The translations under genes were made by a program, and so were the position numbers. The notes under the pieces are model-generated. The model was not told the DNA's origin. It searched no databases and saw only the letters and a list, made by a program, of their open reading frames with translations. A stretch of 64,000 nt of DNA. Source: an uncultured Candidatus Saccharibacteria bacterium. Lineage in GTDB: Bacteria; Patescibacteriota; Minisyncoccia; Phycocordibacterales; PALSA-1337. Of the stretch, positions 1-59,968 are shown one piece after another; position 1 is the first letter of the stretch; every line of letters starts with the position of its first letter. The stretch lies in contig CAZIVT010000001.1 of NCBI GenBank assembly GCA_964543075.1, forward strand, positions 7,703 through 71,702. Reading direction: 5' to 3'.

Positions 1-98
1 ATCCCACGTGTTGCCGGGTACCGCCCAATCGTTGTGGAGCCACAGACCGTCGTCGCTGCGGTCCAGGTTGAAGACGAACGGGCGGCCGTCGGAGTCGG
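1..98 (-). repeat. DGR variable repeat (VR), in-window part only. It continues beyond position 1.
   Basis: The reverse complement of 1..98 aligns base-for-base with TR 2073..2170. There are 11 differences, all at TR adenines. By my hand count 11 of 28 TR adenines are changed and 0 of about 70 non-adenine positions. TR AAC/AAA/AAT/GAC codons become CGC, TTC, GAC, AGC, CAC, GTA, GGC and GAT in the VR. Confidence 0.85.
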
Positions 99-1791
99 AA
101 ATAGGCTTCATGCCGATGTGGAAATACTCTCCCAGAGGCTGATTGCGGTATTTGAGACGGTAATTGGGACCAGTGTCCGGTGGGCAGAGTTCAAGGCCAA
201 GCTCTTCCGCTCGCTCGAATATTTGGGTGGTAGTCGCGCTTGTCTTGAGACCCAGATCACCAACAGTGAGGCGGATGAGTGTCATCTCCTCGGGGTTCTT
301 TGTTGGAATGAATTCAGCTTTATTCAAGAGCATGCTTCGAGCATAGCTGGAAAGATTGATACTCGCAGCTTCGATTTCGGAGATGAGCTGTTCTGCCGAT
401 TTGCCTCCAACCTCCACATTTTCTCTCCTGATTTTCTTTTCGGGGAACGAAGTATATACGTGTTCCAAAGTCGCCGGAAGTTTTTGGAAAACACCGGGTT
501 CAAGCTGCCCGACATATGCTTTGGTATTTTCGGTTATCTCGCTCGGAACATGGGCTATCTGTTCTTTCGCGCACTCGAAAATCGTAAGCATGTCCTCTTC
601 CGTGTTGCGGCCTGCACGAAGCTCTTCAATACGGGGATCTTTTTCGTACCCGAAACCCTCGATCGTGGAGTTTATTTCATAGAGGAATGTGAGGTCTTCT
701 TTGGTGAAAGGCTCGTCTTTTTCATGCTTGCTTTCGAGAGCGGTGAGGAGGCGCATATCCTCGCTTTTCTTGCGATAAGCATCGGCTTCCACGCCGAATT
801 CGCCGAGCTTCTCGTCCAAGACTTCCTGCATGAGCGGTTCTACGCCCTGATGCGGCAGAATGCCGCGCACTTCGCCGATTCGATCTTTGCCTTCCATGCG
901 TATAGCAAGGCGTGGTTGAGTCGGCTCACCACTTGAATCGTTCGTATAGTAGACATAAAAGTCGCCGGACTCGATCTGAGTTTCGGCCGTTGATTTTCCG
1001 GCAGTGCACCAGCCGGTTCCTTTGCCTTCGAGAGACTCAAATAGTTTTTGTGAAGCTTCGTTGTCTCCTTGTTCATATTTTACCCACTGTCCCTGAATCT
1101 CCTCGCGGTTCTCCATCGAGGCTGCCAGAGATTTTGAAATGAGTTCTGCATAGAGCGTCGGGAATTTCTTGTCGAATTCTCTACGAGCCTCGGAATCCTT
1201 GTTATCGTCCTTAACTCTTTCATAGAGATCGGCGATCTGGGCCAAGGGCTCACGGTAGATATCCGGAAAAGGTGCTACCGTGGAATCGGTGCGCTTCTTA
1301 AACTCGCCGCGTTCCTTGTCGAACTGGGAAAGTTTGATGATTTGATTCCAGGCATAGTACTTGAACCATGTCGGATATACCGCATCCGGCGAAGTGAGAT
1401 ATTCCATCCATGCGTCGAGAGAGTGTCGCTGATCTTCGATTGCCGTCTCCATCATCTGCTCGCGCACATCGGCCGGAATTTCTTCTATATGCTGACCACG
1501 CTCACGGGCGATGCGCTTCTGAAGCTCGAAGTACGAATCGGGAAAATTCTCCTTCTTGATGATGAGCTTGTCGTATATCTTGTCGCGGAACATTTCGAGA
1601 TTTCGCTCCCGCTTGTCTTCGTCGGGATTGAGGAAGATGTTTTCCAGTCGATCCATGTAAGCCTCGATGCGCTCGGTGGGATTATTCGGGATTTTTTCTC
1701 CTTCGAGACGCTCTTTCTTCTCTACGGCAGACTGCACTTCAGGGGAAGTCTGGAGCTCGGGATTTTTCATGTGAAGCGGAAACTTTTCCAT
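1..1791 (-). CDS. DGR target protein (variable protein). Partial: the 3' end with the rest of the VR lies beyond the window start. About 597 aa are visible. No signal peptide, highly charged.
   Basis: The minus-strand ATG at 1791 opens a frame that runs to position 1 without a stop. I verified by hand the segments MEKFPLHMKNPELQTSPEVQSAVEKKERLEGEKIPNN (1791..1681), KDSEARREFDKKFPTLYAEL (1200..1141), FYVYYTNDSSGEPTQPRLAI (960..901) and the C-terminal GEYFHIGMKPISDSDGRPFVFNLDRSDDGLWLHNDWAVPGNTWD (rc of 1..135). The C-terminal codons are the VR cognate of the TR at 2073..2170. The plus-strand ORFs 34..936 and 1342..2022 are its antisense shadows. Confidence 0.8.
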   Translation of the reverse strand, partial: MEKFPLHMKNPELQTSPEVQSAVEKKERLEGEKIPNNPTERIEAYMDRLENIFLNPDEDKRERNLEMFRDKIYDKLIIKKENFPDSYFELQKRIARERGQHIEEIPADVREQMMETAIEDQRHSLDAWMEYLTSPDAVYPTWFKYYAWNQIIKLSQFDKERGEFKKRTDSTVAPFPDIYREPLAQIADLYERVKDDNKDSEARREFDKKFPTLYAELISKSLAASMENREEIQGQWVKYEQGDNEASQKLFESLEGKGTGWCTAGKSTAETQIESGDFYVYYTNDSSGEPTQPRLAIRMEGKDRIGEVRGILPHQGVEPLMQEVLDEKLGEFGVEADAYRKKSEDMRLLTALESKHEKDEPFTKEDLTFLYEINSTIEGFGYEKDPRIEELRAGRNTEEDMLTIFECAKEQIAHVPSEITENTKAYVGQLEPGVFQKLPATLEHVYTSFPEKKIRRENVEVGGKSAEQLISEIEAASINLSSYARSMLLNKAEFIPTKNPEEMTLIRLTVGDLGLKTSATTTQIFERAEELGLELCPPDTGPNYRLKYRNQPLGEYFHIGMKPISDSDGRPFVFNLDRSDDGLWLHNDWAVPGNTWD

Positions 1792-2072
1792 GGGCAAATT
1801 GTAGCAAAAATCGCATATTTTGGCTATAATTTTGCCGAATCGGTTGCATTGAACGGCTCCGGCTTTTCAAGACCCTTTCGGCTCATGCGGATTGAGAGTT
1901 CGTCCGGCTCCGGCTTGACGGAGAGGATTCGCATGGAAGTCAAAATAAAGAAAATACTTGGTGCGGCGCGTTCGCTGATTCTCGATCACGCATACAATTC
2001 AGTCCGGTCTTTTGCCCACTGAACTTCAGGAAGCATCAGATGGACGGTGGCATGGATGACGCGTCGCACGAA

Positions 2073-2200
2073 CCGACTCCGACGGCAACCCGAACGTCTT
2101 CAACCTGAACCGCAACGACGACGGTCTGTGGCTCAACAACGATTGGGCGAAACCCGACAACACGTGGAATCCGGACAACAAGTTCGTATTCCGTCTCCGA
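2073..2200 (+). repeat. DGR template repeat (TR). The 3' boundary is uncertain: at least 2170, probably about 2200.
   Basis: Sequence ccgactccgacggcAACccgAACgtcttcAACctgAACcgcAACgacgacggtctgtggctcAACAACgattgggcgAAAcccgacAACacgtggAAtccggacAACAAgttc. It is AAC-rich in the same codon frame as the VR, and identical to the VR except at adenines. It lies upstream of the RT on the same strand. It is followed at 2225..2247 by a perfect 14-bp palindrome agtaacatgttact plus a ttactag direct repeat. Confidence 0.85.
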
Positions 2201-2243
2201 AACTGTTTTCTTTTTCCGCGATCCAGTAACATGTTACTAGTTA

Positions 2244-2648
2244 CTAGCGGTCGCGGTTTTTCTTGTCCGGATTTTCAAGGCCTTTCTTCCATCCGTAAAA
2301 CATCTTACCTGACTCCTCAAGCTTCCGCGCCACATCTTCACACTGTTTGTTGGTGACAAGCTTGCCCTCCCAAGCTACGGCGACCAGAAACTTGAGCGTG
2401 TCGAGGACAAAAATGCATTCGGCGATCTTTTCCGCTTTCTTTTCTTTTTCGGTAAAATACGCCACATAGGACAGCTCGAGCAAATCGAGAAATTTATTTT
2501 CTATCCGAGCTCCGATGGTATATCGAGCGCCTTTGGAAATATGCGGAACAATATTAACCCACAACAAATATCCCTCTTTGACTCGCTGGAGAATCGAGGC
2601 GTTATCGAGAGAGAGAGAGAGAGAGAGAGTAGAATGCGGCCGCGTCAT
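2244..2648 (-). CDS. avd: Avd-like accessory protein (four-helix-bundle / 23S rRNA IVS family), divergent to the RT. Start codon uncertain: ATG 2657 or 2648, or a downstream non-ATG.
   Basis: The translation ...ILQRVKEGYLLWVNIVPHISKGARYTIGARIENKFLDLLELSYVAYFTEKEKKAEKIAECIFVLDTLKFLVAVAWEGKLVTNKQCEDVARKLEESGKMFYGWKKGL fits the IVS / four-helix-bundle pattern (W..helix, xPK.E.Y.L..Q.RR, then ...GKML.GL) that the Bordetella phage Avd belongs to. It is about 130 aa and basic, and sits between the TR and the RT. The stop TAG is at 2244..2246. Confidence 0.6.
   Translation of the reverse strand: MTRPHSTLSLSLSLDNASILQRVKEGYLLWVNIVPHISKGARYTIGARIENKFLDLLELSYVAYFTEKEKKAEKIAECIFVLDTLKFLVAVAWEGKLVTNKQCEDVARKLEESGKMFYGWKKGLENPDKKNRDR
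2609..2632. repeat. (GA)11-12 dinucleotide microsatellite in the divergent avd/RT 5' overlap.
   Basis: gagagagagagagagagagagag at 2609..2631. It encodes ERERERE in the RT frame and SLSLSLSL in the avd frame. Confidence 0.9.
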
Positions 2649-3623
2649 ATCTACCATAATATCATCTCCGTTGATAACTTGCTCTCGGCGTGGCGCGAGT
2701 TTCTGAAAAATAAGCGCGGCCGCAAAGATGTTAAGGAATTTTCGCTACGTCTCATGGACAACATCCTTGCTCTTAATAGCGATCTTGTAGATAAAACATA
2801 CCGGCATGGCGGTTATACTGCGTTTCGGATCAACGACCCGAAGCCGCGCGACATTCACAAGGCGACAGTGCGCGATCGGCTCCTGCATCACGCTATGTAT
2901 CGAATCCTGTATCCATATTTTGATCCGAAATTCATTTTTGATTCATATTCCTGTCGTCGCGTCAAAGGCACGCATCGGGCACTGAACCGTTTTCGCGACC
3001 ATGCACGCTCGGTCTCCCGTAACAACACACGCACGATTTGGATTTTGAAATGCGACATACGAAAATTTTTCGCCAATATAGATCATGAAATTCTGGGCAA
3101 GATTTTGAAAAAATATATTAGAAGTGGCAATACGATCTTACTTCTAAGCAAGGTCGTCAGGAGTTTCCATATTGAGGGCAGGCCAGGCGTCGGTCTGCCG
3201 CTTGGCAATCTCACGAGCCAGCTTTTGGTGAACGTATACATGAACGAATTTGATCACTTTCTCAAGCGCGAATTGAAGGTCGAACATTGCGTCAGATATG
3301 CAGACGATTTTGTCATATTGCACGAGAATAGGAAGCATCTGGAAAATTTGCTTCCTCTGATTTCCGAATTTCTTGAGACCCGATTGAAACTGTCTCTACA
3401 TCCCGATAAGGTATTCATAAAGACGTGGTCGTCCGGCGTTGATTTTCTCGGATGGGTACATTTTCCACATCATCGTGTGCCGCGCACTTCGACCAAAAGA
3501 CGAATGTTTAGAAATCTCGAAGCAAATTCAAAAGAAGAATCTCTTTCATCATATCGTGGACTTTTGAAGCATGGCGATACATACAAATTGAGGAAGATGT
3601 TGGATAGATATAATCGACATTAA
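2634..3623 (+). CDS. DGR reverse transcriptase. The probable start is ATG 2634; the ORF is open from 2541.
   Basis: N-terminus ...ISVDNLLSAWREFLKNKRGRKDVKEFSLRLMDNILALNSDLVDKTYRHGGYTAFRINDPKPRDIHKATVRDRLLHHAMYRILYPYFDPKFIFDSYSCRRVKGTHRAL... Motif 4 is GVGLPLGNLTSQLLVNVYM, carrying the DGR-type [ILV]GxxxSQ in place of the group II intron QGxxxSP. Motif 5 is VRYADDFVIL. It is colinear with Bordetella phage bRT (GVGIPIGSLTSQLFANVY ... RYMDDIVVL). Confidence 0.9.
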   Translation: MRPRHIYHNIISVDNLLSAWREFLKNKRGRKDVKEFSLRLMDNILALNSDLVDKTYRHGGYTAFRINDPKPRDIHKATVRDRLLHHAMYRILYPYFDPKFIFDSYSCRRVKGTHRALNRFRDHARSVSRNNTRTIWILKCDIRKFFANIDHEILGKILKKYIRSGNTILLLSKVVRSFHIEGRPGVGLPLGNLTSQLLVNVYMNEFDHFLKRELKVEHCVRYADDFVILHENRKHLENLLPLISEFLETRLKLSLHPDKVFIKTWSSGVDFLGWVHFPHHRVPRTSTKRRMFRNLEANSKEESLSSYRGLLKHGDTYKLRKMLDRYNRH

Positions 3624-3665
3624 GAGGTCTAGACATCCTCGGTGATCAGCGTCATCCATTAGGGT

Positions 3666-3995
3666 GTGATAAAGGATGATGATATTGAAGCGATCATAGA
3701 TGCGAGCAAGCATTTCAAATACCACGAGCCGACAGGTTCTACTCCCTTTAACCGTATCTCCAAATTGCCCGAATCCAAGAAGGATTTGAAGATGGCAATC
3801 AAGGAGCGCATCCGACTGCTCGTTGCCTCATACATCTCGCTCGCTTCCTTTATTGATGACGACCTCGTCGATTTTCTCGAGAGTGATGAAGTGCAGGTGC
3901 GTAAAGGTAAGGTGATACGGATATATAACAGAGTATTCAAAGATTTTGAGAAACTAAGAAAGGAAATTCAAAATTTTAACCCATTCGAGCCATGA
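3666..3995 (+). CDS. Hypothetical protein (109 aa) between the DGR RT and the recombinase.
   Basis: An intact ORF on the same strand as the RT and integrase, with an acidic N-terminus and a basic C-terminus. No recognisable family. Confidence 0.4.
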   Translation: MIKDDDIEAIIDASKHFKYHEPTGSTPFNRISKLPESKKDLKMAIKERIRLLVASYISLASFIDDDLVDFLESDEVQVRKGKVIRIYNRVFKDFEKLRKEIQNFNPFEP

Positions 3996-4129
3996 AAAAA
4001 TTTATTTTGAGCACGGTTTGGGAGAAAAGTTACCAACTCTGAAGGGTCGAGGGACGCCCTAGACTTCCTAGAGGGGTTGCGTCATTCCTTGTGTTTGTAA
4101 GGAATTAACAGCAAATAACACAAAAAATC

Positions 4130-5452
4130 ATGCAACAAATACAAGCGCCTGGAGGAGTGACGGCCAAACCAGCAAGCCCCGTAAAGGTAAAATACTGCCT
4201 GTATGCCAGAAAAAGCACCGAATCCGAGGAACGCCAAGTCCTTTCAATCGACAGCCAGATAAGCGAGATGTTGAAACTGGCTGAAAGAGAAGGTCTTGAG
4301 ATAGTATCCATGAAACGAGAGAGTCATTCTGCCAAAGAGACAGGACAACGACCTATTTTTAACGAGATCGTCGATGAGATAAAGGCAAAAAAGTTCAATG
4401 GAATACTGACATGGGCACCGGATCGTATTAGTCGTAATGCAGGCGATCTCGGCAAAGTCATCGATCTCATGGATGCCAATATCCTTCAGGACATTCGCAC
4501 GTACGGTCAAAGATTCACGAATAGTCCGAATGACAAGTTTATGCTTATGATCCTCTGCTCACAAGCAAAACTGGAGAACGACAACCGAGGTATCAACGTA
4601 AAGCGAGGACTTCGAACACGAGTCGAGATGGGACTCTGGCCTGGAATGGCACCCTTGGGATATCTCAATCAGAAGCTCATGGACAAGAAATGCCAACTGG
4701 CGATCGATCCAGCGAGAGCGCCAGTCATAAAGAAAATATTCGAGAAGGTGGCATACGAGCAGTGGAGTGGAAGGAAGGTATACAACTGGCTTAGGTTCGA
4801 GCTCAACTTCCATACGAGGGGTAATAGACCGCTTACGTTAAGTGGCGTATACAAAATCCTGGACAACCCCATATATTACGGCCCCTTCGAATTCCCAAAG
4901 AAAAGCGGCAACTGGTATCAAGGCAAGCATACACCCATAGTGGATCAGGAATTGTTCGAGAAAGCACAAGCTCACCTGAAGCGTGACCAAATTGTAAGAG
5001 AAACCAAGGAATTCTCCTTCACCAAGCTCTTCACCTGCGGATATTGTGGATCGGGTATATCCGCCGAGGAGAAGTGGAAACAGCTCAAGGCAGGCGGATC
5101 AAACAGATACATATACTACTCCTGCTCCAGAGCAAAGGATAGAAATTGTAAGAACAAATACATACGTGAAGAAGATCTGATTACGGAGCTTCTCAAAATA
5201 TTGGACAAGGTAAATCTGAATGAGCTCGGTATGCGGCAGAGATTGGAGGATGAAATTGCGAGATTCAATATCTTCCAGAGATCAGTCCTTGGCACCAAAG
5301 ACAAAGTTGAGGCAAGAAGCGATACTGATATCAGAAACTATGCGAAGTATATTCTCAAGGAAGGAACAGCGAATGAGAAGCGGGAGTTACTGGCGAATCT
5401 CAGAAGCAGGATCATATATAAGGACAAGACACTCACACTCGTAGAAGAATGA
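4130..5452 (+). CDS. Large serine recombinase (integrase).
   Basis: The N-terminal resolvase-type catalytic domain (VKYCLYARKSTESEERQVLSIDSQ...) is followed by a recombinase domain and a Cys-rich zinc-ribbon region (FTCGYCGSGISAEE...YYSCSRAKDRNCKNKYIRE). At 440 aa it matches phage and ICE large serine integrases. It sits next to the tRNA-Ser 3' end. Confidence 0.85.
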   Translation: MQQIQAPGGVTAKPASPVKVKYCLYARKSTESEERQVLSIDSQISEMLKLAEREGLEIVSMKRESHSAKETGQRPIFNEIVDEIKAKKFNGILTWAPDRISRNAGDLGKVIDLMDANILQDIRTYGQRFTNSPNDKFMLMILCSQAKLENDNRGINVKRGLRTRVEMGLWPGMAPLGYLNQKLMDKKCQLAIDPARAPVIKKIFEKVAYEQWSGRKVYNWLRFELNFHTRGNRPLTLSGVYKILDNPIYYGPFEFPKKSGNWYQGKHTPIVDQELFEKAQAHLKRDQIVRETKEFSFTKLFTCGYCGSGISAEEKWKQLKAGGSNRYIYYSCSRAKDRNCKNKYIREEDLITELLKILDKVNLNELGMRQRLEDEIARFNIFQRSVLGTKDKVEARSDTDIRNYAKYILKEGTANEKRELLANLRSRIIYKDKTLTLVEE

Positions 5453-5457
5453 TCGAT

Positions 5458-5492
5458 AACAAAAAAACAGCGATAGTTCTGCTTTTTTGTTC
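5458..5492 (+). terminator. Rho-independent terminator after the recombinase gene.
   Basis: aacaaaaaaacag-cgatagtt-ctgcttttttgtt: a stem with T-rich tail 6 bp after the TGA stop. Confidence 0.6.
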
Positions 5493-5563
5493 AGCGTAAT
5501 GAGGCTTGAAGGTCGCACTTCACTCCAAATCAATAAGGACACACCGATACTAAATTGTCAAGG

Positions 5564-5650
5564 CGGAGAGGAAGGGATTCGAACCCTTGATGCCCTTTCG
5601 GACATACGGCCTTTCCAGGGCCGCCCATTCGACCGCTCTGGCACCTCTCC
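5564..5650 (-). tRNA. tRNA-Ser (anticodon GGA).
   Basis: The reverse complement GGAGAGGTGCCAGAGCGGTCGAATGGGCGGCCCTGGAAAGGCCGTATGTCCGAAAGGGCATCAAGGGTTCGAATCCCTTCCTCTCCG folds as follows. Acceptor GGAGAGG/CCTCTCC. A 3-bp D-stem. Anticodon stem CGGCC/GGCCG with loop CTGGAAA (anticodon GGA). A long class II variable arm. T-arm AAGGG-TTCGAAT-CCCTT. Discriminator G. CCA is not encoded. Confidence 0.9.
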
Positions 5651-5796
5651 AAGTCAATTCAAAATGAAAAATCTACCGCACAACCACTCATTTGTAGCAT
5701 ATTATACGAAACGACGCATCTGCACCACCTCGCTTAGGTAACTGATGGGCACTATTCCGAAATTTTCAATTCTCAATTTTGAATTTTCAATTTTGC

Positions 5797-6702
5797 CTAC
5801 CATCTCCCGCTCGCACCGCCGCCCCCTGACATGCCGCCTCCGAACCCGCCGAAGCCTCCGCCTCCGAAACCACCTCCCCTGCCACCACCCAGGAAGATCG
5901 GCCAGAAACCGCCATGACCTCCTCCAGAGCCAGGTGGGCGCCTGGATACGACATAGTCGAACAGGAGACCGAGCAGAGTCAGGAGGACGGTCGCGGATAT
6001 GCCGATCGCTAGAGAACTCGCGATCAGCCCGATGATGGCGCCTATAACGGCCCCTATGACACCGCCCAGCCACCACGACTTGGTCTTACCAAGCAGACGA
6101 GCCATGATATTGAAGACGACGATGATCAGGAAAAATATGCCTCCCGACCATTCGCCACTATTAGAGCTCTGGGAAGATGGAGCTGAATACTGCGCCGCTT
6201 CCGGAGAACCGGAGATGGTGGCACTGAGAGCGTCCACAGCCGAAGAGATACCTTGTCCATATTCGCCTGCCTGAAAAGCGGGCGTGAGCACCTGTCTGAT
6301 GATATTCCCCGACTGGATGTCCGTCACGGCTCCCTCGAGACCGTAGCCGACTTCGATGCGCATCTGGCGATCATCGACGGCCACCAGGAGCAAGAGACCT
6401 GTATCGCGATCAGCCGAGCCGATGCCCCATTCTCGGAAGAGCTTTTCGGCATACGTCTCGATGGTCTCATCATCACCGATCGTCCTCACGGTGACCACGG
6501 CGACCTGAGCTCCCGTGGACTGTTCGATGGCCACGAGCTTGCCGTCGATCATAGCCTTCTCTTCAGCATTCAGAATGCCGGCAAAATCATTGACATGCCC
6601 TGTAGGACGACCAGGGCTCGTGTAGGCAAAAGCTTCGGGACTAGAAAGGAAGAGAGAAAAAGGAAGAAGGAAGGAAAAAGCTATAGTGGTGATATACTTC
6701 AT
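5797..6702 (-). CDS. TPM-domain protein (YgcG-like), secreted or membrane-anchored with a Gly-rich C-terminal tail.
   Basis: It has a signal peptide, then a TPM phosphatase-like domain (HVNDFAGILNAEEKAMIDGKL...VAVVTV...LLLLVAVDDRQMRIEVGYGLEG...), a TM helix and a GGGFGGGG tail. It is paired with the adjacent LemA gene, as is typical. Confidence 0.85.
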   Translation of the reverse strand: MKYITTIAFSFLLPFSLFLSSPEAFAYTSPGRPTGHVNDFAGILNAEEKAMIDGKLVAIEQSTGAQVAVVTVRTIGDDETIETYAEKLFREWGIGSADRDTGLLLLVAVDDRQMRIEVGYGLEGAVTDIQSGNIIRQVLTPAFQAGEYGQGISSAVDALSATISGSPEAAQYSAPSSQSSNSGEWSGGIFFLIIVVFNIMARLLGKTKSWWLGGVIGAVIGAIIGLIASSLAIGISATVLLTLLGLLFDYVVSRRPPGSGGGHGGFWPIFLGGGRGGGFGGGGFGGFGGGMSGGGGASGRW

Positions 6703-6808
6703 ACAGGAAAATACGAAATCTTAGGCACGAAATCCGAAACAGGCACAAAACAACCGTGTGATTTTTTCGAATTTCGAAATTCGAAATTCGTGCTTCGGAT
6801 TTTATGCC

Positions 6809-10854: not shown

Positions 10855-12606
10855 GTGACCGAACCATCGACATATACACCTCGTCCCGGCCGTAAAGCAA
10901 CCATACTCGGCTATATCGGGAGATTCTCAGCTACAGAACGAGCTCTATTCAGCTTGCTCGTGATCGCCGCGCTCATTTCCGCGCTCATCATGGGAAAATG
11001 GGTCAATGACTATTTCTCAGTAGATGTACCCGCCTACGGAGGATCGCTGACTGAGGGCATCATCGGCCTACCCCGTACGGTCAACCCTATCCTCGCCGTG
11101 ACCGACGCTGATCGCGACATATCAGCGCTCGTATATTCCGGCCTAGCGAAGTACGAGCATGGAGCGCTCGTCACCGACCTAGCCCAATCATATGACATAT
11201 CCGAAGATGGCCTCGTATATACGTTCACGTTGAAACCAAAGCTACAGTTCCACGACGGCGAACCACTAACTACGGAGGACATCGCCTTTACCATCCAGAA
11301 GATCCAGGACCCTGTCCTCAAGAGTCCCCGTCGCGCCGACTGGGCAGACGTGACGGTCGAGGTCGTATCTCCCACAGAAGTGAAGTTCATCTTGAAACAG
11401 CCCTATCGGCCTTTCCTATCCAATACGACGATCGGCATCCTGCCGAAGCATGTCTGGGGTTCAGTCAGCGATGAACAGTTCATCTTCAGCCAGTACAACA
11501 TAGAGCCGATCGGATCAGGCCCATATCGTTTCGACAAGGTCTCATACAACGCAGGTGGCATCCCCACGACATACAAACTCTCATCGTGGAGCGGATACCA
11601 TGGACGCGTACCGTATATAAGCCAGGTCATATTCAAATTCTTCGCGGACGAAGAAACGGCGCTCGATGCTCTGGACCAGGGATCGATCGACAGCTTGCCG
11701 TCAGTGCCTCCTGCCGCCGCCACGAACCTCGCGCGTACGACCGCACAATCATACACCGTCATCTCTTCGCCCTTGCCGCGAGTATTCGGGGTATTCTTCA
11801 ATCAGAGCCAGTCTCCCATACTGGCCGATCGAGCCGTGAGAGTCGCGCTCGATGCGGCGCTCGACCGTCAAGCGATCGTCGATGCCGTCCTCGACGGATA
11901 CGGCCTACCTCTCGATAGAGCTGTGCCTTTTCTAGCCATAGCGAGCTCGACAGATTCCACTGGTCCATCGATCGACCCTGCGACGACTTCGCCGTTCATC
12001 GCGAACGCAGAAGCGATCCTAGACAGGAATGGCTGGAAGAAGAATGACGGCGTCTATGAGAAGAAGACATCGTCAGGAGTCTCCACCATCTCATTCGATA
12101 TATATACAGCCGATTCTCCTGACCTCAAGCGCGCAGTAGAGATGATACGCGACACATGGAACGAGCTCGGCGCGCAGGTCAACATCAAGGTCTACGAAAC
12201 GGGAGATCTCTACCAGAACATCATCCGGACACGAGAATACGACGCTCTCTTCTTCGGCCAATCGATCGGCAAAGACCGTGACTTCTATGCCTTCTGGCAC
12301 TCATCACAGCGCAACGCTCCTGGCCTCAATGTGGCCCTCTATACCAATACCAAGACCGACAAATTGCTCGAGGACATCCGCATGATCGGCGACGAGGATC
12401 TGCGTGCCGAGAAATACGCCGAGTTCGACGAACTCCTCACGTATGATGTCCCCGCCACGTTCGTATATCTGCCGGATTTCATCTACGCGATCCCTCGAAC
12501 GCTCGGCGGTATCCAGCTCGATACCATGACCTCGCCGGCAGATCGCTGGAACGGAGTCCGTGACTGGTATATAGAAACTGAACGCGTATGGAAGATATTC
12601 GACTAG
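10855..12606 (+). CDS. ABC transporter substrate-binding protein, family 5 (oligopeptide/dipeptide-type).
   Basis: A TM/signal anchor is followed by SBP_bac_5-like sequence (...DADRDISALVYSGLAKYEHGALVTDLAQSYDISEDGLVYTFTLKPKLQFHDGEPLTTEDIAFTIQKIQDP...). Confidence 0.8.
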   Translation: MTEPSTYTPRPGRKATILGYIGRFSATERALFSLLVIAALISALIMGKWVNDYFSVDVPAYGGSLTEGIIGLPRTVNPILAVTDADRDISALVYSGLAKYEHGALVTDLAQSYDISEDGLVYTFTLKPKLQFHDGEPLTTEDIAFTIQKIQDPVLKSPRRADWADVTVEVVSPTEVKFILKQPYRPFLSNTTIGILPKHVWGSVSDEQFIFSQYNIEPIGSGPYRFDKVSYNAGGIPTTYKLSSWSGYHGRVPYISQVIFKFFADEETALDALDQGSIDSLPSVPPAAATNLARTTAQSYTVISSPLPRVFGVFFNQSQSPILADRAVRVALDAALDRQAIVDAVLDGYGLPLDRAVPFLAIASSTDSTGPSIDPATTSPFIANAEAILDRNGWKKNDGVYEKKTSSGVSTISFDIYTADSPDLKRAVEMIRDTWNELGAQVNIKVYETGDLYQNIIRTREYDALFFGQSIGKDRDFYAFWHSSQRNAPGLNVALYTNTKTDKLLEDIRMIGDEDLRAEKYAEFDELLTYDVPATFVYLPDFIYAIPRTLGGIQLDTMTSPADRWNGVRDWYIETERVWKIFD

Positions 12607-55271: not shown

Positions 55272-56657
55272 CTAGTTCTCCCTGATCCGGAAGAATTTTT
55301 TGTCTCCCTCCACTTGGAATTCCAGATGCAGGATGCTCAAGGTAGTATTCGTGGTCAGCACATCGCTCCAGTCAATTAGATTGGTCGACGCCTGTATCGT
55401 ATACGAGGTCTGCGGTCTGCACAGAGCACCATACAGGACATTCCCTCCTTGTACGGCAGAGACATGGAATTTCGGCCGGAACACATCGACTACTTCGATA
55501 TATGTTCCCGTAGATGACAGGATCGCCTTCCCTACGCTCGCTCCACCGACGTATGTTGCCGTGATAGAGCTCATGGCAGTGGACATCTCGTCAGTAGTCC
55601 AGATGAAGCTCCCTTCTTCGGAATCCGATAAGACCTCGCATAGAAGCGTCAATTCCTTGGTTTGCCCCATCGGCACGGTCAAGTCGATCGGGAAACCGAC
55701 TTGTGTGTGATAATTAGTGCCTTGGGACGGCGTGAATCCGAGCGTGTTCGTCGTCAATGGCTGACTTCCATCCATAAGGATGAATTTGAGGGACAAAAAG
55801 CTCGTCGAGTAGCTCGTGAAGATCGCGTCGACTTGTGACACGTGGACATCGTTAGTCGCCGATGTAGCATCGAGCTTGATCGAAGCGCAGACCTCGCTGT
55901 CTCCTCTGGCGATCGAAAACGCGAGGTAGTTCGGGATGAGCGACATCCGCATCCCCTCCGTGAATACGTCGACAGGACTGAATGTTTGGACGATCCCGTA
56001 CTTTTCGTTGACGAGCATCATCGAGTGAGGGCCGCCGACAAGCCCGTATGAAGCAGGCGGGTACGCGGACGGCAAGGACGACGGATACGGGATGATGAGC
56101 GCCTGTGTGCCGCTCTCTGTAGCAATGCTCATATTGGTGACGAGTAGACCATAGTCCGCATAGTGGAACATCGGATTCTCGAGGATCACCAGACACGAAT
56201 CATTGGTCTGGAGCCCTTCCCACGAGACGGTGTTGGTCCTGATCTCCCCAGGAAGCCAGGTCCCTCCGCCATCCCACTGGCTCGCGAACGTGGCCGGACC
56301 AGAGATCGTGAAGAATCCGCTTTCATCGGTCACGTTGACGCTCGTGTTGGTGCCGACGAGACGGATCTTGTACTGATAATTGGTCGGGTATTTCGACGGC
56401 GTGCTCAAGACAAAGCTGTTCGTGCCCGCCGAGAGCGTTCGTGAATACAGGGGCGCGTCGCCGATGACGAGGTCATCGTTGGTGTCGTACCAGTCCAGAT
56501 AGACGGTGACATTCAAGTTGTCCGAATTTGTCCATGTGATGGAGTGTTTTCCGTTCGATGGGAGTTTTTTGCCCCCTGATGGATATGTGAGATCCAGGTC
56601 GGCTCGAGCCGATACCGCCATGCAGGCCACAATGGCCGCAAGATACATGATTTTCAT
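55272..56657 (-). CDS. Secreted hypothetical protein (461 aa).
   Basis: Signal peptide MKIMYLAAIVACMAVSARA. No recognised domain. It lies immediately upstream of tuf, where rpsL-rpsG-fusA would normally be. Confidence 0.6.
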   Translation of the reverse strand: MKIMYLAAIVACMAVSARADLDLTYPSGGKKLPSNGKHSITWTNSDNLNVTVYLDWYDTNDDLVIGDAPLYSRTLSAGTNSFVLSTPSKYPTNYQYKIRLVGTNTSVNVTDESGFFTISGPATFASQWDGGGTWLPGEIRTNTVSWEGLQTNDSCLVILENPMFHYADYGLLVTNMSIATESGTQALIIPYPSSLPSAYPPASYGLVGGPHSMMLVNEKYGIVQTFSPVDVFTEGMRMSLIPNYLAFSIARGDSEVCASIKLDATSATNDVHVSQVDAIFTSYSTSFLSLKFILMDGSQPLTTNTLGFTPSQGTNYHTQVGFPIDLTVPMGQTKELTLLCEVLSDSEEGSFIWTTDEMSTAMSSITATYVGGASVGKAILSSTGTYIEVVDVFRPKFHVSAVQGGNVLYGALCRPQTSYTIQASTNLIDWSDVLTTNTTLSILHLEFQVEGDKKFFRIREN

Positions 56658-56771
56658 TTGTCATTCTCTTTCTGTATGGAGTTTTCTGTTGTTGTGTGAA
56701 CTATCCGCGTGGAACAATATCACATGTGTATGATATTTAACAAACGCCTACGGACCTGCTATCATCTTGGC

Positions 56772-57620
56772 ATGATAAAAAAGATATCTGTTTTGGTGAC
56801 TTTAGTCATCATTCTGGGAGTAGTGAGTTATCTATTTAAGAATAGTTCCAGTCTTTCTTCTGTGACTCAAAAGTGTGGCCCTCAGCCAACCAGTATCGAA
56901 AAAATAGGAGGACTAAACACAAAAAACTGGAAAACTGTTACCAATGATAATTTTGGTTACACACTAAAAACTCCTTCTGGGTGGCTTGTAAGCTACATCC
57001 AGAACGGAACAAAAAATATCCACTTGAGCCGGCAAGGTGGTTCGATAGTCATAACTGAGATTGAAAACGGTTTTGACGCACGAGATTGTGGGCTAGTAAT
57101 TGAGCTCAATGATAGGCGTTATAACATTGAATATGACTTCGATAGAAACTTCGACGGGGGCGAACTTTGGATAGAGGAGATGGATAAGATCGTGAGCACG
57201 ATTGAACCTTCTTCGCCGACAATGAGTAGCCCAGGACTAAATTATGACACTATCTATAAAGTGGATGGCTATTATTCTACATACGACCAACTCATGTACC
57301 CGCTTGATTACGATCCTGAATATGATCCATATCCAGCAACAACTACCTGCTCCGTATTCACTGTCCTTCATGGAAATAACGAGGTTATATCCTACTTCAA
57401 GGATCAAATAGCTAGAGGTAACACCGTAAATAGGTTGGACGAGATTGGAAATCTAGTACTGAATCTTGATCTTGGAGACATTACCTCCTTAAAGCATGAG
57501 GAGCTGTTACTCGAATCCAATAAACAAGAGCAAGTATCCCTTGATATAAAAGTCAAACGACCATTGGGAAAAGGTGCGAACTATTGCCAAAGCATGATAA
57601 CTATAGTCTCCGTTCAATAA
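56772..57620 (+). CDS. Membrane-anchored hypothetical protein, paralog A. The ORF is open from 56709.
   Basis: MIKKISVLVTLVIILGVVSYLF is a TM anchor. It shares ...QKCG.QP.S.EKI..LNT..W... and VSTIEPSS blocks with the downstream pseudogene. Confidence 0.6.
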   Translation: MIKKISVLVTLVIILGVVSYLFKNSSSLSSVTQKCGPQPTSIEKIGGLNTKNWKTVTNDNFGYTLKTPSGWLVSYIQNGTKNIHLSRQGGSIVITEIENGFDARDCGLVIELNDRRYNIEYDFDRNFDGGELWIEEMDKIVSTIEPSSPTMSSPGLNYDTIYKVDGYYSTYDQLMYPLDYDPEYDPYPATTTCSVFTVLHGNNEVISYFKDQIARGNTVNRLDEIGNLVLNLDLGDITSLKHEELLLESNKQEQVSLDIKVKRPLGKGANYCQSMITIVSVQ

Positions 57621-57665
57621 GAAACAGGTTCCTCTTTCGAAGAACCTGTGTTGTTTTGTCCGACG

Positions 57666-58859
57666 TCAATCATCTTCCGTATTGGTTGATTGATAGAAGA
57701 GGGGTTTGAATTGGGGAGGATTTTCGCTTGTGTCCCATATTGTGCTCAGTTTGTAATCCTTCAGGAGACGGTTTTCCATCTTCACCAAATTTAGGTAGGG
57801 TGAATCATTCCAACCCCCAGGAGCTGTACCCCCGTTATTGGCAAAATAAAAGGTCACGTGTATGTGTGTGCCTAAGGAATTACCAGTGTCTCCCATTATT
57901 CCGATCTGTTGGCCTTGACTGACTCTCTGACCATACTGGACAAGTGGTTGATTCTTCATGTGAAGATACACCGTTTGAAAACCTGTCTCTGTCTTCCCGT
58001 CATAATCATGGTCGATTCTAACGTGCCAACCATTTGTAGTGTCATAGTTTGCACCGTATACAAATCCACCCGCCATTGCATATATAGGCGGATCAACCGC
58101 AATATATATGTTCGTATCTCCATCAAGAGCTTTCCAATATGAGCTGAAGTCAATCGAGTAATAAGTTCGACCTGTGTGAGCGGGGTCCGGTTTATTGTCG
58201 AATGCATGACCACCCGCCTCAACCGTCAACTTCCATGCCCTGTTCCCTGGCAACGGCATCTTGAAGCGAGGCAACTTCTCGTAGGACACCTCGATGTATG
58301 GCCTCATGCTGACTATCGAGTACTCGGACGAGCGGAAGTAATTCCACTTGTTATCGACATTATCAGCTCTCAACAATAACCCATAATTTGGTTCGGCGGC
58401 AGTGAGCCACGCATAGAACTCCTGCGCGATGTCGAATGAGTAGAGGCCGTTTGCCTTATCTGGCGCGGAAATCGGACCCCGATCATTGATCGTGATGCCC
58501 CACTGATCGGATGCAGAGCTCTCCGACCATGGGGTGCGGACGAACCACTTGTGCATCGATGTCGGATTCACCGTATCGAATGCGTACATATTCAACGTCG
58601 CCTTCGTGATGATGATCCGCGTAGAGCTCGGGTAGTAGAAGTGCACGGGCATCTTGATGAGCGTATAGTTCCAGCTTCCCAGGCCGCCCACGCGGAGCGT
58701 GCTGTCATTGATGGCATCACGGTTATCGAGCGAGCCGAACCACTTGTCTTCAGTAAGACCCTCGCCGGGGATGAAGTATTTTTCCTCGAACCCTTTGATG
58801 TCTTGGATTGTGAAAAGAGCCAGACAGGCAACCAACTTGCATAGGATATTCGTTTTCAT
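57666..58859 (-). CDS. Secreted M23-family metallopeptidase (LytM-like).
   Basis: A signal peptide and the C-terminal M23 signature (...WHVRIDHDYDGKTETGFQTVYLHMKNQPLVQYGQRVSQGQQIGIMGDTGNSLGTHIHVTF). Confidence 0.8.
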   Translation of the reverse strand: MKTNILCKLVACLALFTIQDIKGFEEKYFIPGEGLTEDKWFGSLDNRDAINDSTLRVGGLGSWNYTLIKMPVHFYYPSSTRIIITKATLNMYAFDTVNPTSMHKWFVRTPWSESSASDQWGITINDRGPISAPDKANGLYSFDIAQEFYAWLTAAEPNYGLLLRADNVDNKWNYFRSSEYSIVSMRPYIEVSYEKLPRFKMPLPGNRAWKLTVEAGGHAFDNKPDPAHTGRTYYSIDFSSYWKALDGDTNIYIAVDPPIYAMAGGFVYGANYDTTNGWHVRIDHDYDGKTETGFQTVYLHMKNQPLVQYGQRVSQGQQIGIMGDTGNSLGTHIHVTFYFANNGGTAPGGWNDSPYLNLVKMENRLLKDYKLSTIWDTSENPPQFKPLFYQSTNTEDD

Positions 58860-58894
58860 TCAGTAATCTTTCATGTTTTGTTTGTTGACTAACC

Positions 58895-59968
58895 TTGCAC
58901 AAAGATAACAGATGGAGCGTTTATTTTCAAACTAGTACTAGAGTAAATGATTATTCCCAGGAAAATTGGTATCATTGCACTGCATTTATGCGTAGAAAGG
59001 ACGTCATCATGTATGGAACAATGCTCATATACATATGCCTTGCGGTATATGTATTCACTTTTAGCGATGCCTCCTCATTGTCTTTGCAAAAATGCGGGAG
59101 GCAACCGAGCAGTACAGAGAAGATAGTCGATCTCAACACAAGAGGATGGCATGTTTTGGATCGAGGGGGATACGGCTACAAACTGATGGTTCCGGAAAAT
59201 TAGTATATCGACCATCAACAGAACGGAACAAAGAGCACGCGTCTGAGTAGACACCAGAGTTCGATCATTATCACCGAGATCGTCGATGGATCGTCAGATT
59301 ACGGGTGCGGGCTCATGGTCATGCTCGGCGACAGGAAATACAACATCTCATACTCATTCGACGCTGATTTTAGCAGCAATGAGTCCTGGATAGACCTCAT
59401 GGATAAAGTCGTGAGCACGATCGAACCTTCTTCCAAGAAAGAGGGTGAGGATGTATCATATCGAGTCAACTCAGAGGAAGAAGGTTGTCGAGCGGGGTAT
59501 ATGCCATACACCATCGCTTTGGTAGATGGAACTTATATTTACGGATGTCAACTTACCTCCTCGATCGTCCAAGGTCCCCGCCTCATCGGCACCGGCAATG
59601 AAGTATACACTGTTACGGGATATTATCAGGAATACGAGAAGGGATATTATCGTTTTGATGATGAAAATCTATACGCGACCACATGTCACGGCTTCGTGGC
59701 GACGGGCGGTAATCAGGACTTCATCGATGCATATAAATCAGAAATAAAAACGGTGGAGGAAATCGGTGGTAACGTTGTCATCGATATCGATCGAATGCAT
59801 GTCCCTAGCTATCCAGGTCCAAACAATGTACTTGAAATCGAACCATTATCATCAAAGATAAAAGAATCGACCATCGAAAATCAAATCAGTTTGAACTTCA
59901 AAGTGTGGCCATTCCCAGAACGTGATGCGAATCCATGTGACTCTCACGGAATCTACATAGTCGAATGA
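58895..59968 (+). pseudogene. Paralog B of 56772..57620, interrupted by a single in-frame TAG at 59204..59206.
   Basis: ORFs 58895..59203 and 59315..59968 are in the same frame and colinear with paralog A. The stop aligns with Trp of A (PSGWLVSYIQNGTK against PEN*YIDHQQNGTK), which implies TGG->TAG. Confidence 0.65.

Follow-up and report, generated by a model that had tools for sequence, protein, structure and literature searches.

In the following, we describe a probable mobile element at the left edge of a 64-kb stretch of DNA from an uncultured Candidatus Saccharibacteria bacterium (contig CAZIVT010000001.1; the whole stretch is called the window below). Window positions 1 to about 5572 very probably constitute the right end of an integrated element, which belongs to a family residing at tRNA-Ser genes in many Patescibacteria lineages and which carries a diversity-generating retroelement (DGR) as cargo. 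The first-pass annotation had read the DGR as cargo of a tRNA-integrated element, and this interpretation is supported: The block consisting of TerL, DGR, and a large serine recombinase recurs at two other tRNA-Ser genes (loci L086 and L093), and the near-identical backbones of loci L091 and L092 bear different cargo.

The coordinates of the features are compiled in Table 1. The tRNA-Ser(GGA) is the sole tRNA of the window; Rfam places it at 5564..5650 with a score of 55 bits, and its acceptor stem (GGAGAGG/CCTCTCC) is fully paired, so that an intact tRNA abuts the integrase end. Its 3' end faces the stop codon of the recombinase gene at a distance of 109 nt. The recombinase comprises a Resolvase domain (PF00239, 5.5e-18, residues 24-168), a Recombinase domain (PF07508, 2.2e-14, residues 194-285), and a zinc ribbon (Zn_ribbon_recom, PF13408, 6.3e-10, residues 297-352). 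Its catalytic serine is Ser29 according to the YARKST motif read from the sequence, and in PHROG the protein matches the integrase phrog_95 (1e-64). The three Pfam domains and the spacing confirm that a 440-aa large serine recombinase lies beside the 3' end of tRNA-Ser(GGA), as had been annotated, and the coordinates bear out that DGR, hypothetical open reading frame (ORF), and integrase are all located on the 3' side of the tRNA. Correct was also the observation that 2244..4130 is richer in A/T than its flanks: The G+C content (GC) is 0.445 for 2244..4129 and 0.472 for 1..5561, as compared to 0.536 +/- 0.032 for 2-kb segments of the remaining window, only 1 of 57 of which has a value <=0.45.

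Two Logan contigs, L001 (from another sample) and L174, reach 6.3 kb past the left edge of the window. The genes found there in L001 encode a 92-aa ORF, a VirD4-like ATPase, a Fic-domain protein, a 276-aa ORF, and a partial ORF of 528 aa. The ATPase (929 aa) contains the domains DUF8128, DUF87, TraG-D_C, and TrwB_AAD_bind and corresponds to phrog_5156 over its full length. By means of ATPase homologues we found L086 and L093, which show the same gene order as the combined sequence of the window and L001, with a nucleotide identity of 83-85%. The collinear stretch consists of the 528-aa gene, the ATPase, the DGR target gene, avd with the template repeat (TR), the reverse transcriptase (RT), a 109-aa ORF, and the recombinase. 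The element of L086 adjoins a tRNA-Ser(GCT), which is followed by RecG, pilin, tRNA-Ile, and FtsH; the one of L093 adjoins a tRNA-Ser(ACT), which is followed by a divergent tRNA-Ser(GCT). In L086, the GC content is 33.3% for the host flank and 45.5% for the element; the corresponding values for the window are 53.6% and 46-47%. Further to the left, L086 and L093 possess an ADP-ribosylglycohydrolase, a metallophosphatase, several unknown genes, and then a TerL homologue of 700-707 aa (phrog_38, 1.9e-75). Next to TerL, a small helix-turn-helix (HTH) protein of L086 resembles TerS; the TerS-like protein was assigned to phrog_4044 and a methyltransferase to phrog_498. The block of L086 and L093 is composed of TerS/TerL, about 14 kb of cargo including the DGR, the 109-aa ORF, and the recombinase.

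A clustering of ORFs across 80 genome loci gave the order of the backbone: one or more ParB-like/N6_N4 methyltransferases, the TerS-like HTH protein, TerL (or, in its place, a 500-aa protein), variable genes, the recombinase, optionally a few additional genes, and the tRNA-Ser. Among the variable genes are type I/III restriction-modification systems, Shedu, a copper ATPase accompanied by CsoR, other RTs, hydrolases, and DGRs. L091 and L092 are 99.8% identical to each other over the element; their recombinases are 97-98% identical to that of the window, and their TerL is 91% identical to that of L086. In these two loci, the DGR is replaced by a seryl-tRNA synthetase, a further class II synthetase, a gene resembling that of the Trp repressor, and a HAD hydrolase. 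The alignment of L091 and the window starts at 3625, which is two bases past the RT stop codon, and the alignment of L091 and L086 covers only TerS/TerL and the right arm. This break in homology indicates that the DGR is the last cargo item and that the 109-aa ORF, the recombinase, and the arm of the attachment (att) site form a conserved right module. The synthetase genes deserve a note of their own: At L091 8544-12603, and likewise in L092, an element integrating at tRNA-Ser bears a seryl-tRNA synthetase (425 aa) and a class II aminoacyl-tRNA synthetase (aaRS) of 449 aa. A PADLOC analysis of the cargo gave only weak matches (SoFic-like, mad8, PDC-S10) and no recognisable defence system.

Homologues of the 109-aa ORF occur at the same position in L086, L091, L093, L009, L011, L012, L013, and L033 with identities of 62-94%. 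In L091 and L093, a protein of 113-117 aa is encoded between this ORF and the recombinase. The protein has no match in Pfam, PHROG, or NCBIfam, and the AlphaFold model computed from the single sequence (pLDDT, the predicted local distance difference test, of 55) is unusable; it is a candidate for a recombination directionality factor or a regulator. Downstream of the recombinase, the stem of a terminator-like hairpin is kept in the alignment with L091, L009, and L004 despite differing sequences. This hairpin was not called in a consensus terminator scan, and nothing exceeded the shuffled expectation in a promoter/terminator scan of 3950..5800.

The homologues of the recombinase form more than 8000 clusters, with identities of 79% or more for each of the best 120. 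After clustering at 50% identity, the next full-length relatives are found at 44-54%, followed by a continuum at about 35-41%. Deposited phage integrases reach at most 29% identity, solved structures match only the N-terminal domain (TP901-1, 5.6e-08), and NCBIfam matches to CcrA/B/C and XisF are far under the model cutoffs. From species-representative genomes, 384 relatives were collected and 80 of their loci were examined; these span Taylor-, Kaiser-, Pacei-, Magasanik-, Vogel-, Nomura-, Buchanan-, Portnoy-, and Staskawiczbacteria bins as well as others. A tRNA lies downstream of the recombinase in 54 loci, and in 53 of these the first one encountered is a tRNA-Ser that is encoded convergently on the opposite strand, with the anticodon GCT in 26 cases, TGA in 15, and CGA, ACT, and GGA in 4 each. 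For 15 loci, the spacing between recombinase and tRNA is 102-122 nt as in the window; in the others, one to several genes intervene. Recombinase GC and host GC are only weakly correlated (r = 0.32 for 45 loci, several of which have values >=0.1 apart), and the overall range for element and host is r = 0.32-0.50. The recombinases of L076 and L070 share 76% identity with that of the window, as against only 58% and 54%, respectively, for GroEL. Some genomes contain several or tandem recombinase copies.

Two recombinases, or a recombinase followed by the left module of another element, were seen in L064, L048, L051, and L034. At the left junction of L009 (430-483), the supposed host side resembles the right arm of another element. 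These arrangements suggest a tandem accretion of elements at tRNA-Ser genes. As regards the anticodons, ARAGORN called tRNA-Ser(ACT) in L045, L047, L053, L056, L068, L077, L091, and L093. This tRNA often lies beside tRNA-Ser(GCT) in Patescibacteria contigs, and the ACT anticodon is unusual for bacteria.

Empty sites were searched in a metagenome scan with the TPM protein, and 80 loci were examined. Many contigs share the synteny GroEL-p221-LemA-TPM-tRNA-Ser(GGA); their GroEL proteins are 73-79% identical, hence these are distant relatives. A recombinase homologue occurs in none of the 80 loci. The comparison with relatives of the same synteny lacking the insertion, which the first-pass annotation had proposed, identified L094, L107, L113, L099, and others as empty: In the four named loci, there is no recombinase within 10 kb and no DGR or other gene of the block past the tRNA. 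L094 and L107 have a common set of unrelated genes past the tRNA. The tRNA of L099 is near-identical to that of the window (the 3' 30 nt are identical), and the sequences are unrelated from the first base past the tRNA. Empty sites with a conserved synteny of the tRNA indicate that the tRNA belongs to the host and that the block on its 3' side is an insertion. For the same reason, we rejected the possibility that the tRNA is carried by the element. The site formed by tRNA-Ser(GGA), TPM, LemA, and GroEL is occupied in L074, L076, and the window. In L096 (9149-18026), a different insert of 8.9 kb, which lacks a homologue of the window recombinase, is located between tRNA-Ser(GGA) and a flank of the L094/L107 type. 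The site is an insertion hotspot that serves elements of more than one kind.

Four loci with a sufficiently long left flank contain an exact copy of the tRNA 3' end (L004, L009, L047, L081; see Table 1). These copies lie upstream, immediately outside the leftmost backbone genes, and their cores correspond to positions 2-24 from the tRNA 3' end. At the right end, the last ~60 nt before the tRNA (consensus ..GGTCGCaCT..AATAAGGACACACCGATACTnAnTTGTCAA) are near-invariant in seven elements, which reside at tRNA-Ser genes with the anticodons GGA, ACT, GCT, and CGA; according to the alignment, empty-site relatives lack this P arm 3' of their tRNA. The identity of L091 and L092 extends across the 3'-terminal 30 nt of tRNA-Ser(GCT) and is lost in the variable arm, which places the junction inside the tRNA and argues that the tRNA end is supplied by the element. 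Judged from these alignments, the crossover would occur within approximately the last 20 nt of the tRNA (5564..5583), and these bases would be wholly or partly derived from the element.

Neither the 64-kb window nor the 6.3 kb recovered leftward contains a second copy of the tRNA 3' end. This null result is uninformative, because the element exceeds the available sequence: At least 12 kb of the window copy have been recovered, and a total of about 23 kb is estimated from L086/L093 plus the left module of L091. At the left end of L091/L092, no tRNA fragment was found; this end is obscured by a second recombinase cassette. The cassette (L091 1107-2790, L092 1-1851) encodes another large serine recombinase of 508-538 aa, which is 37% identical to that of the window. 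Inverted repeats of about 130 nt lie on both of its sides, and its orientation is opposite in L091 and L092, which show 99.8% identity elsewhere; the cassette has the appearance of a unit that is invertible or inverts itself. In L068 (~12353-12460, minus strand), a tRNA-Ser 3' fragment is followed by a left-arm-like sequence (TTTCGAATCCGC); this gene-less stretch adjoins a tRNA-Ser(ACT) and may be a remnant or a miniature derivative of the family. The Logan contig L003 stops at window position 5610, about 48 nt into the tRNA, and L001 and L002, which stem from two other samples, stop at 6775. Position 5610 is where a branch of the assembly graph would be expected, should the 5' part of the tRNA also be present in an empty-site allele or in another tRNA-Ser.

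According to the model that we derive from these observations, the recombinase would join the site of the element (attP) to attB, the terminal ~20 nt of a tRNA-Ser gene irrespective of its isoacceptor type, and features common to all Ser isoacceptors would explain this target range. The element would bring its own copy of the tRNA end and thereby keep the tRNA intact; the displaced fragment of the host tRNA would remain at the far (left) junction. For the window copy, the model expects a copy of the tRNA end, GCGGAGAGGAAGGGATTCGAA, at the left junction. Excision would need a directionality factor. Transfer between cells may proceed by packaging.

Several points weigh against the interpretation as an integrated element with the DGR as cargo. 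The left junction of the window copy was not seen, as the longest contig ends 6.3 kb to the left and does not contain a tRNA fragment. The TerS/TerL module is deduced from L086/L093 (83-85% identical) and was not observed in the genome of the window. No excised circle and no empty allele of the same strain were observed. A directionality factor, a replication module, or transfer machinery was not identified. Finally, the reconstructed attP sites show little dyad symmetry (at best 34 of 90 positions), too little for a localisation of the crossover.

With respect to the type of the element, the first-pass annotation had left the choice between a tRNA-integrated prophage and an integrative element; the latter is supported, and the former is not, since no structural genes were found. 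Such genes, whose search had been suggested, were sought with PHROG and Pfam in the cargo of L086, in the L001 genes left of the window, and in L007 beyond the recombinase, and no portal, capsid, tail, or lysis gene was found, although divergent proteins of the Candidate Phyla Radiation (CPR) could be missed. The element is thus not a recognisable prophage. One may still suppose a complete temperate prophage at tRNA-Ser, the structural genes of which are too divergent for recognition: The gene set includes TerS, TerL, a ParB-methyltransferase, and a serine integrase of phage type, the ATPase has its full-length counterpart in PHROG, and CPR phage proteins are poorly covered in databases (PMC5758913). 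We regard this as improbable, because the bounded elements comprise just 9-17.5 kb, because the genes following TerL vary from element to element (restriction-modification, metal resistance, aaRS, hydrolase, DGR), and because a TerL search of a viral contig collection gave no close relative. A conjugative element was not recognised either, though the VirD4-like ATPase is present in the window copy; neither a relaxase nor VirB4 was apparent among the genes of L086 and L093, where no search aimed at relaxases was made. Of the features of phage satellites, integrase, TerS, and TerL were found, and a replication or regulatory module was not recognised. The simplest interpretation of a TerS/TerL pair that is not accompanied by virion genes is a packaging into capsids of another phage; the gene content suggests that TerS/TerL may direct the element into capsids that such a phage would supply.

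Even less probable is the view that mobility, or the status of a remnant, is limited to the recombinase and the 109-aa ORF, and that DGR, ATPase, and the genes further left are ordinary chromosomal ones. The left att site was indeed not found in the 12 kb available, the ATPase shows a smooth gradient of identity across Patescibacteria, and orphan coupling proteins are common there (PMC12102498). However, the whole block is collinear beside two other tRNA-Ser genes, one of them in a host with 33% GC, L086 and L093 possess the TerL/TerS backbone on the far side of the DGR, and the genes 3' of the tRNA are unrelated in empty-site relatives. Moreover, ATPase homologues also reside in other islands, for example in one of about 10 kb between secY and adk of the ribosomal-protein operon (L088 5211-15931; homologue 87% identical). 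Another of these homologues lies beside a tyrosine integrase. An equally small chance is left to a domesticated, vertically inherited recombinase (such as an invertase or regulator) beside tRNA-Ser in a fixed, immobile island, since the strong conservation of the protein (>=79% for the best 120 homologues) and the shared occupation of the TPM-LemA-GroEL site in L074, L076, and the window are opposed by five isoacceptors with many different flanks, recombinases of 97-98% identity at different tRNAs with different cargo, direct repeats in relatives, the discordance between element and host GC, several or tandem copies in some genomes, and empty sites in syntenic relatives.

The DGR itself is active. 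Within the window, all 11 mismatches between TR and variable repeat (VR) are located at TR adenines, although adenine accounts for only 28 of these 98 TR positions. L001 is 99.88% identical to the window over 6775 nt, and the eight differences all lie inside the VR at positions of TR adenines. Differences between samples that are confined to the VR, together with mismatches solely at TR adenines, signal a real and active DGR. The last 15 codons and the stop codon of the target gene are located left of the window; the full ORF is found at L001 5827..7641/7668. The target gene is 93-95% identical to those of L086/L093 and 77% identical to that of L064, and it has no match in Pfam, PHROG, or NCBIfam. 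Homologues of the RT begin near 2631, and the identity is 92-93% to the RTs of L086/L093 and 76% to the RT of L064. The match of avd to the NCBIfam model DivGenRetAVD (1.3e-14) is under the cutoff of the model. The layout of this DGR is unusual, as TR and RT are co-oriented, avd lies inverted between them, and the VR is inverted with respect to the TR. A (GA)n run is located at ~2590-2625 between avd and RT, where both ORF calls overlap. DGR-type RTs occur in 10 of the 80 family loci at three different positions relative to the recombinase; we rejected the recombinase as a component of the DGR, since just these 10 loci hold an RT of this type.

The element resembles several known systems. Islander-type islands at tRNA or tmRNA genes likewise have an integrase at one end beside an intact tRNA whose 3' end is restored by the element, a displaced tRNA fragment as direct repeat at the far end (seen here in relatives), and a variable interior cargo. 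These islands use tyrosine integrases and a single tRNA target, whereas a large serine recombinase and any tRNA-Ser isoacceptor are involved here. The layout is classic for tyrosine integrases and not, as had been annotated, for a serine integrase. The large serine recombinases (LSRs) of phages and staphylococcal cassette chromosomes (SCC), i.e. TP901-1, A118/LI, phiC31, Bxb1, CcrA/B/C, and XisF, share the domain order, the YxRxST motif, and the position at the end of the element. The recombinase of the window differs from them by its low identity to phage integrases (<=29%) and its length of 440 aa, which is short for the class. These phage and SCC LSRs target protein-coding or intergenic sites and are not known to target tRNA genes. 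Work on genomic islands treats the targeting of tRNA genes as a property of tyrosine integrases only (PMC4383910).

Phage-inducible chromosomal islands (PICIs) and the tycheposons of Prochlorococcus are similar with respect to size (~10-20 kb), tRNA integration, modular backbone, and swappable cargo; both also have genes for packaging but not the complete set for a virion, and they accumulate at one and the same tRNA. The present elements differ from both in that they combine TerS with a full TerL, have no recognised replication, primase, or regulatory module, and reside in CPR hosts. An LSR was reported for 27 of 937 tycheposons and related cryptic elements (10.1101/2020.12.28.424599). The DGRs carried by Bordetella phage BPP-1 and by a Legionella genomic island are also complete cassettes (target/VR, avd, TR, RT) that are passengers of an integrating element; the arrangement described above, with avd inverted between co-oriented TR and RT and the VR inverted versus the TR, distinguishes the DGR of the window from them. 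In the full-text literature, we did not find this combination of features in Patescibacteria; the coverage is incomplete and an earlier description is possible.

Table 1. Features of the element in the window and direct repeats in related loci. Positions refer to the window, unless a locus is named.
Feature	Position	Strand	Basis or remark
DGR target gene, 604-613 aa	1..1797, runs off left window edge	-	minus-frame translation
Variable repeat (VR)	<1..98, to ~35 nt left of window	-	inverted repeat of 2073..2170
Template repeat (TR)	2073..2206	+	RT orientation, inverted vs VR
avd (bAvd)	2244..2657	-	PF22296 2.6e-11; divergent from RT
DGR reverse transcriptase	2631..3623 (ORF open from 2541)	+	RVT_1 1.7e-23
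Conserved right arm of backbone (109-aa ORF, recombinase, terminator-like hairpin, att arm)	3625..5561	+	common to elements with other cargo
109-aa ORF	3666..3995	+	directly upstream of recombinase, conserved
Large serine recombinase (integrase), 440 aa	4130..5452	+	Resolvase, Recombinase, Zn_ribbon_recom domains
Hairpin followed by T-run, terminator-like	5458..5491	+	read from sequence, 3' of recombinase stop
Element end, P arm of attachment site, ..GGTCGCACT..AATAAGGACACACCGATACTAAATTGTCAA	5502..5561	+	alignment of seven elements
tRNA-Ser(GGA), integration target	5562..5650	-	ARAGORN, Rfam
L009, exact tRNA 3'-end repeat, 21 nt	13.2 kb from tRNA		
L081, exact tRNA 3'-end repeat, 22 nt	17.5 kb from tRNA		
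L004, exact tRNA 3'-end repeat, 15 nt	9.3 kb from tRNA		
L047, exact tRNA 3'-end repeat, 15 nt	11.5 kb from tRNA		

Elsewhere in the window, a stretch of low GC (0.44-0.49) at 55272-59968 adjoins tuf and rpsJ and encodes secreted proteins of unknown function. Two of these, with 303 aa (56709..57620) and 217 aa (59315..59968), appear by eye to be a pair of paralogues.

We tentatively propose, at somewhat less than even chance, that the small elements constitute an undescribed family, found in many lineages of Patescibacteria, whose integrase evolved for the common tRNA-Ser 3' end, that the family moves among hosts of 28-54% GC, probably in capsids of helper phages, and that it is a main vehicle for DGRs, defence genes, and aaRS genes. 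The recombinase very probably represents a family-wide case of a serine integrase that targets tRNA genes, the target being a whole amino-acid class and not a single gene. Large serine integrases need no host factors; combined with the short tRNA-Ser site, this implies that the recombinase could serve as a genetic tool for CPR bacteria. As the DGR lies within the cargo of an integrating element, it would move between hosts as a passenger. This would provide a concrete carrier for a CPR DGR, whereas a survey contained essentially no information on an association of CPR DGRs with phages or mobile elements (PMC5758913). The abundance of the recombinase, together with its conservation across divergent hosts, points to a highly successful mobile element in lineages for which few mobile elements have been described. 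If the proposal is true, bacteria with reduced genomes would receive through this family not only DGRs and defence systems such as restriction-modification, but also genes for metal resistance and even for aminoacyl-tRNA synthetases.

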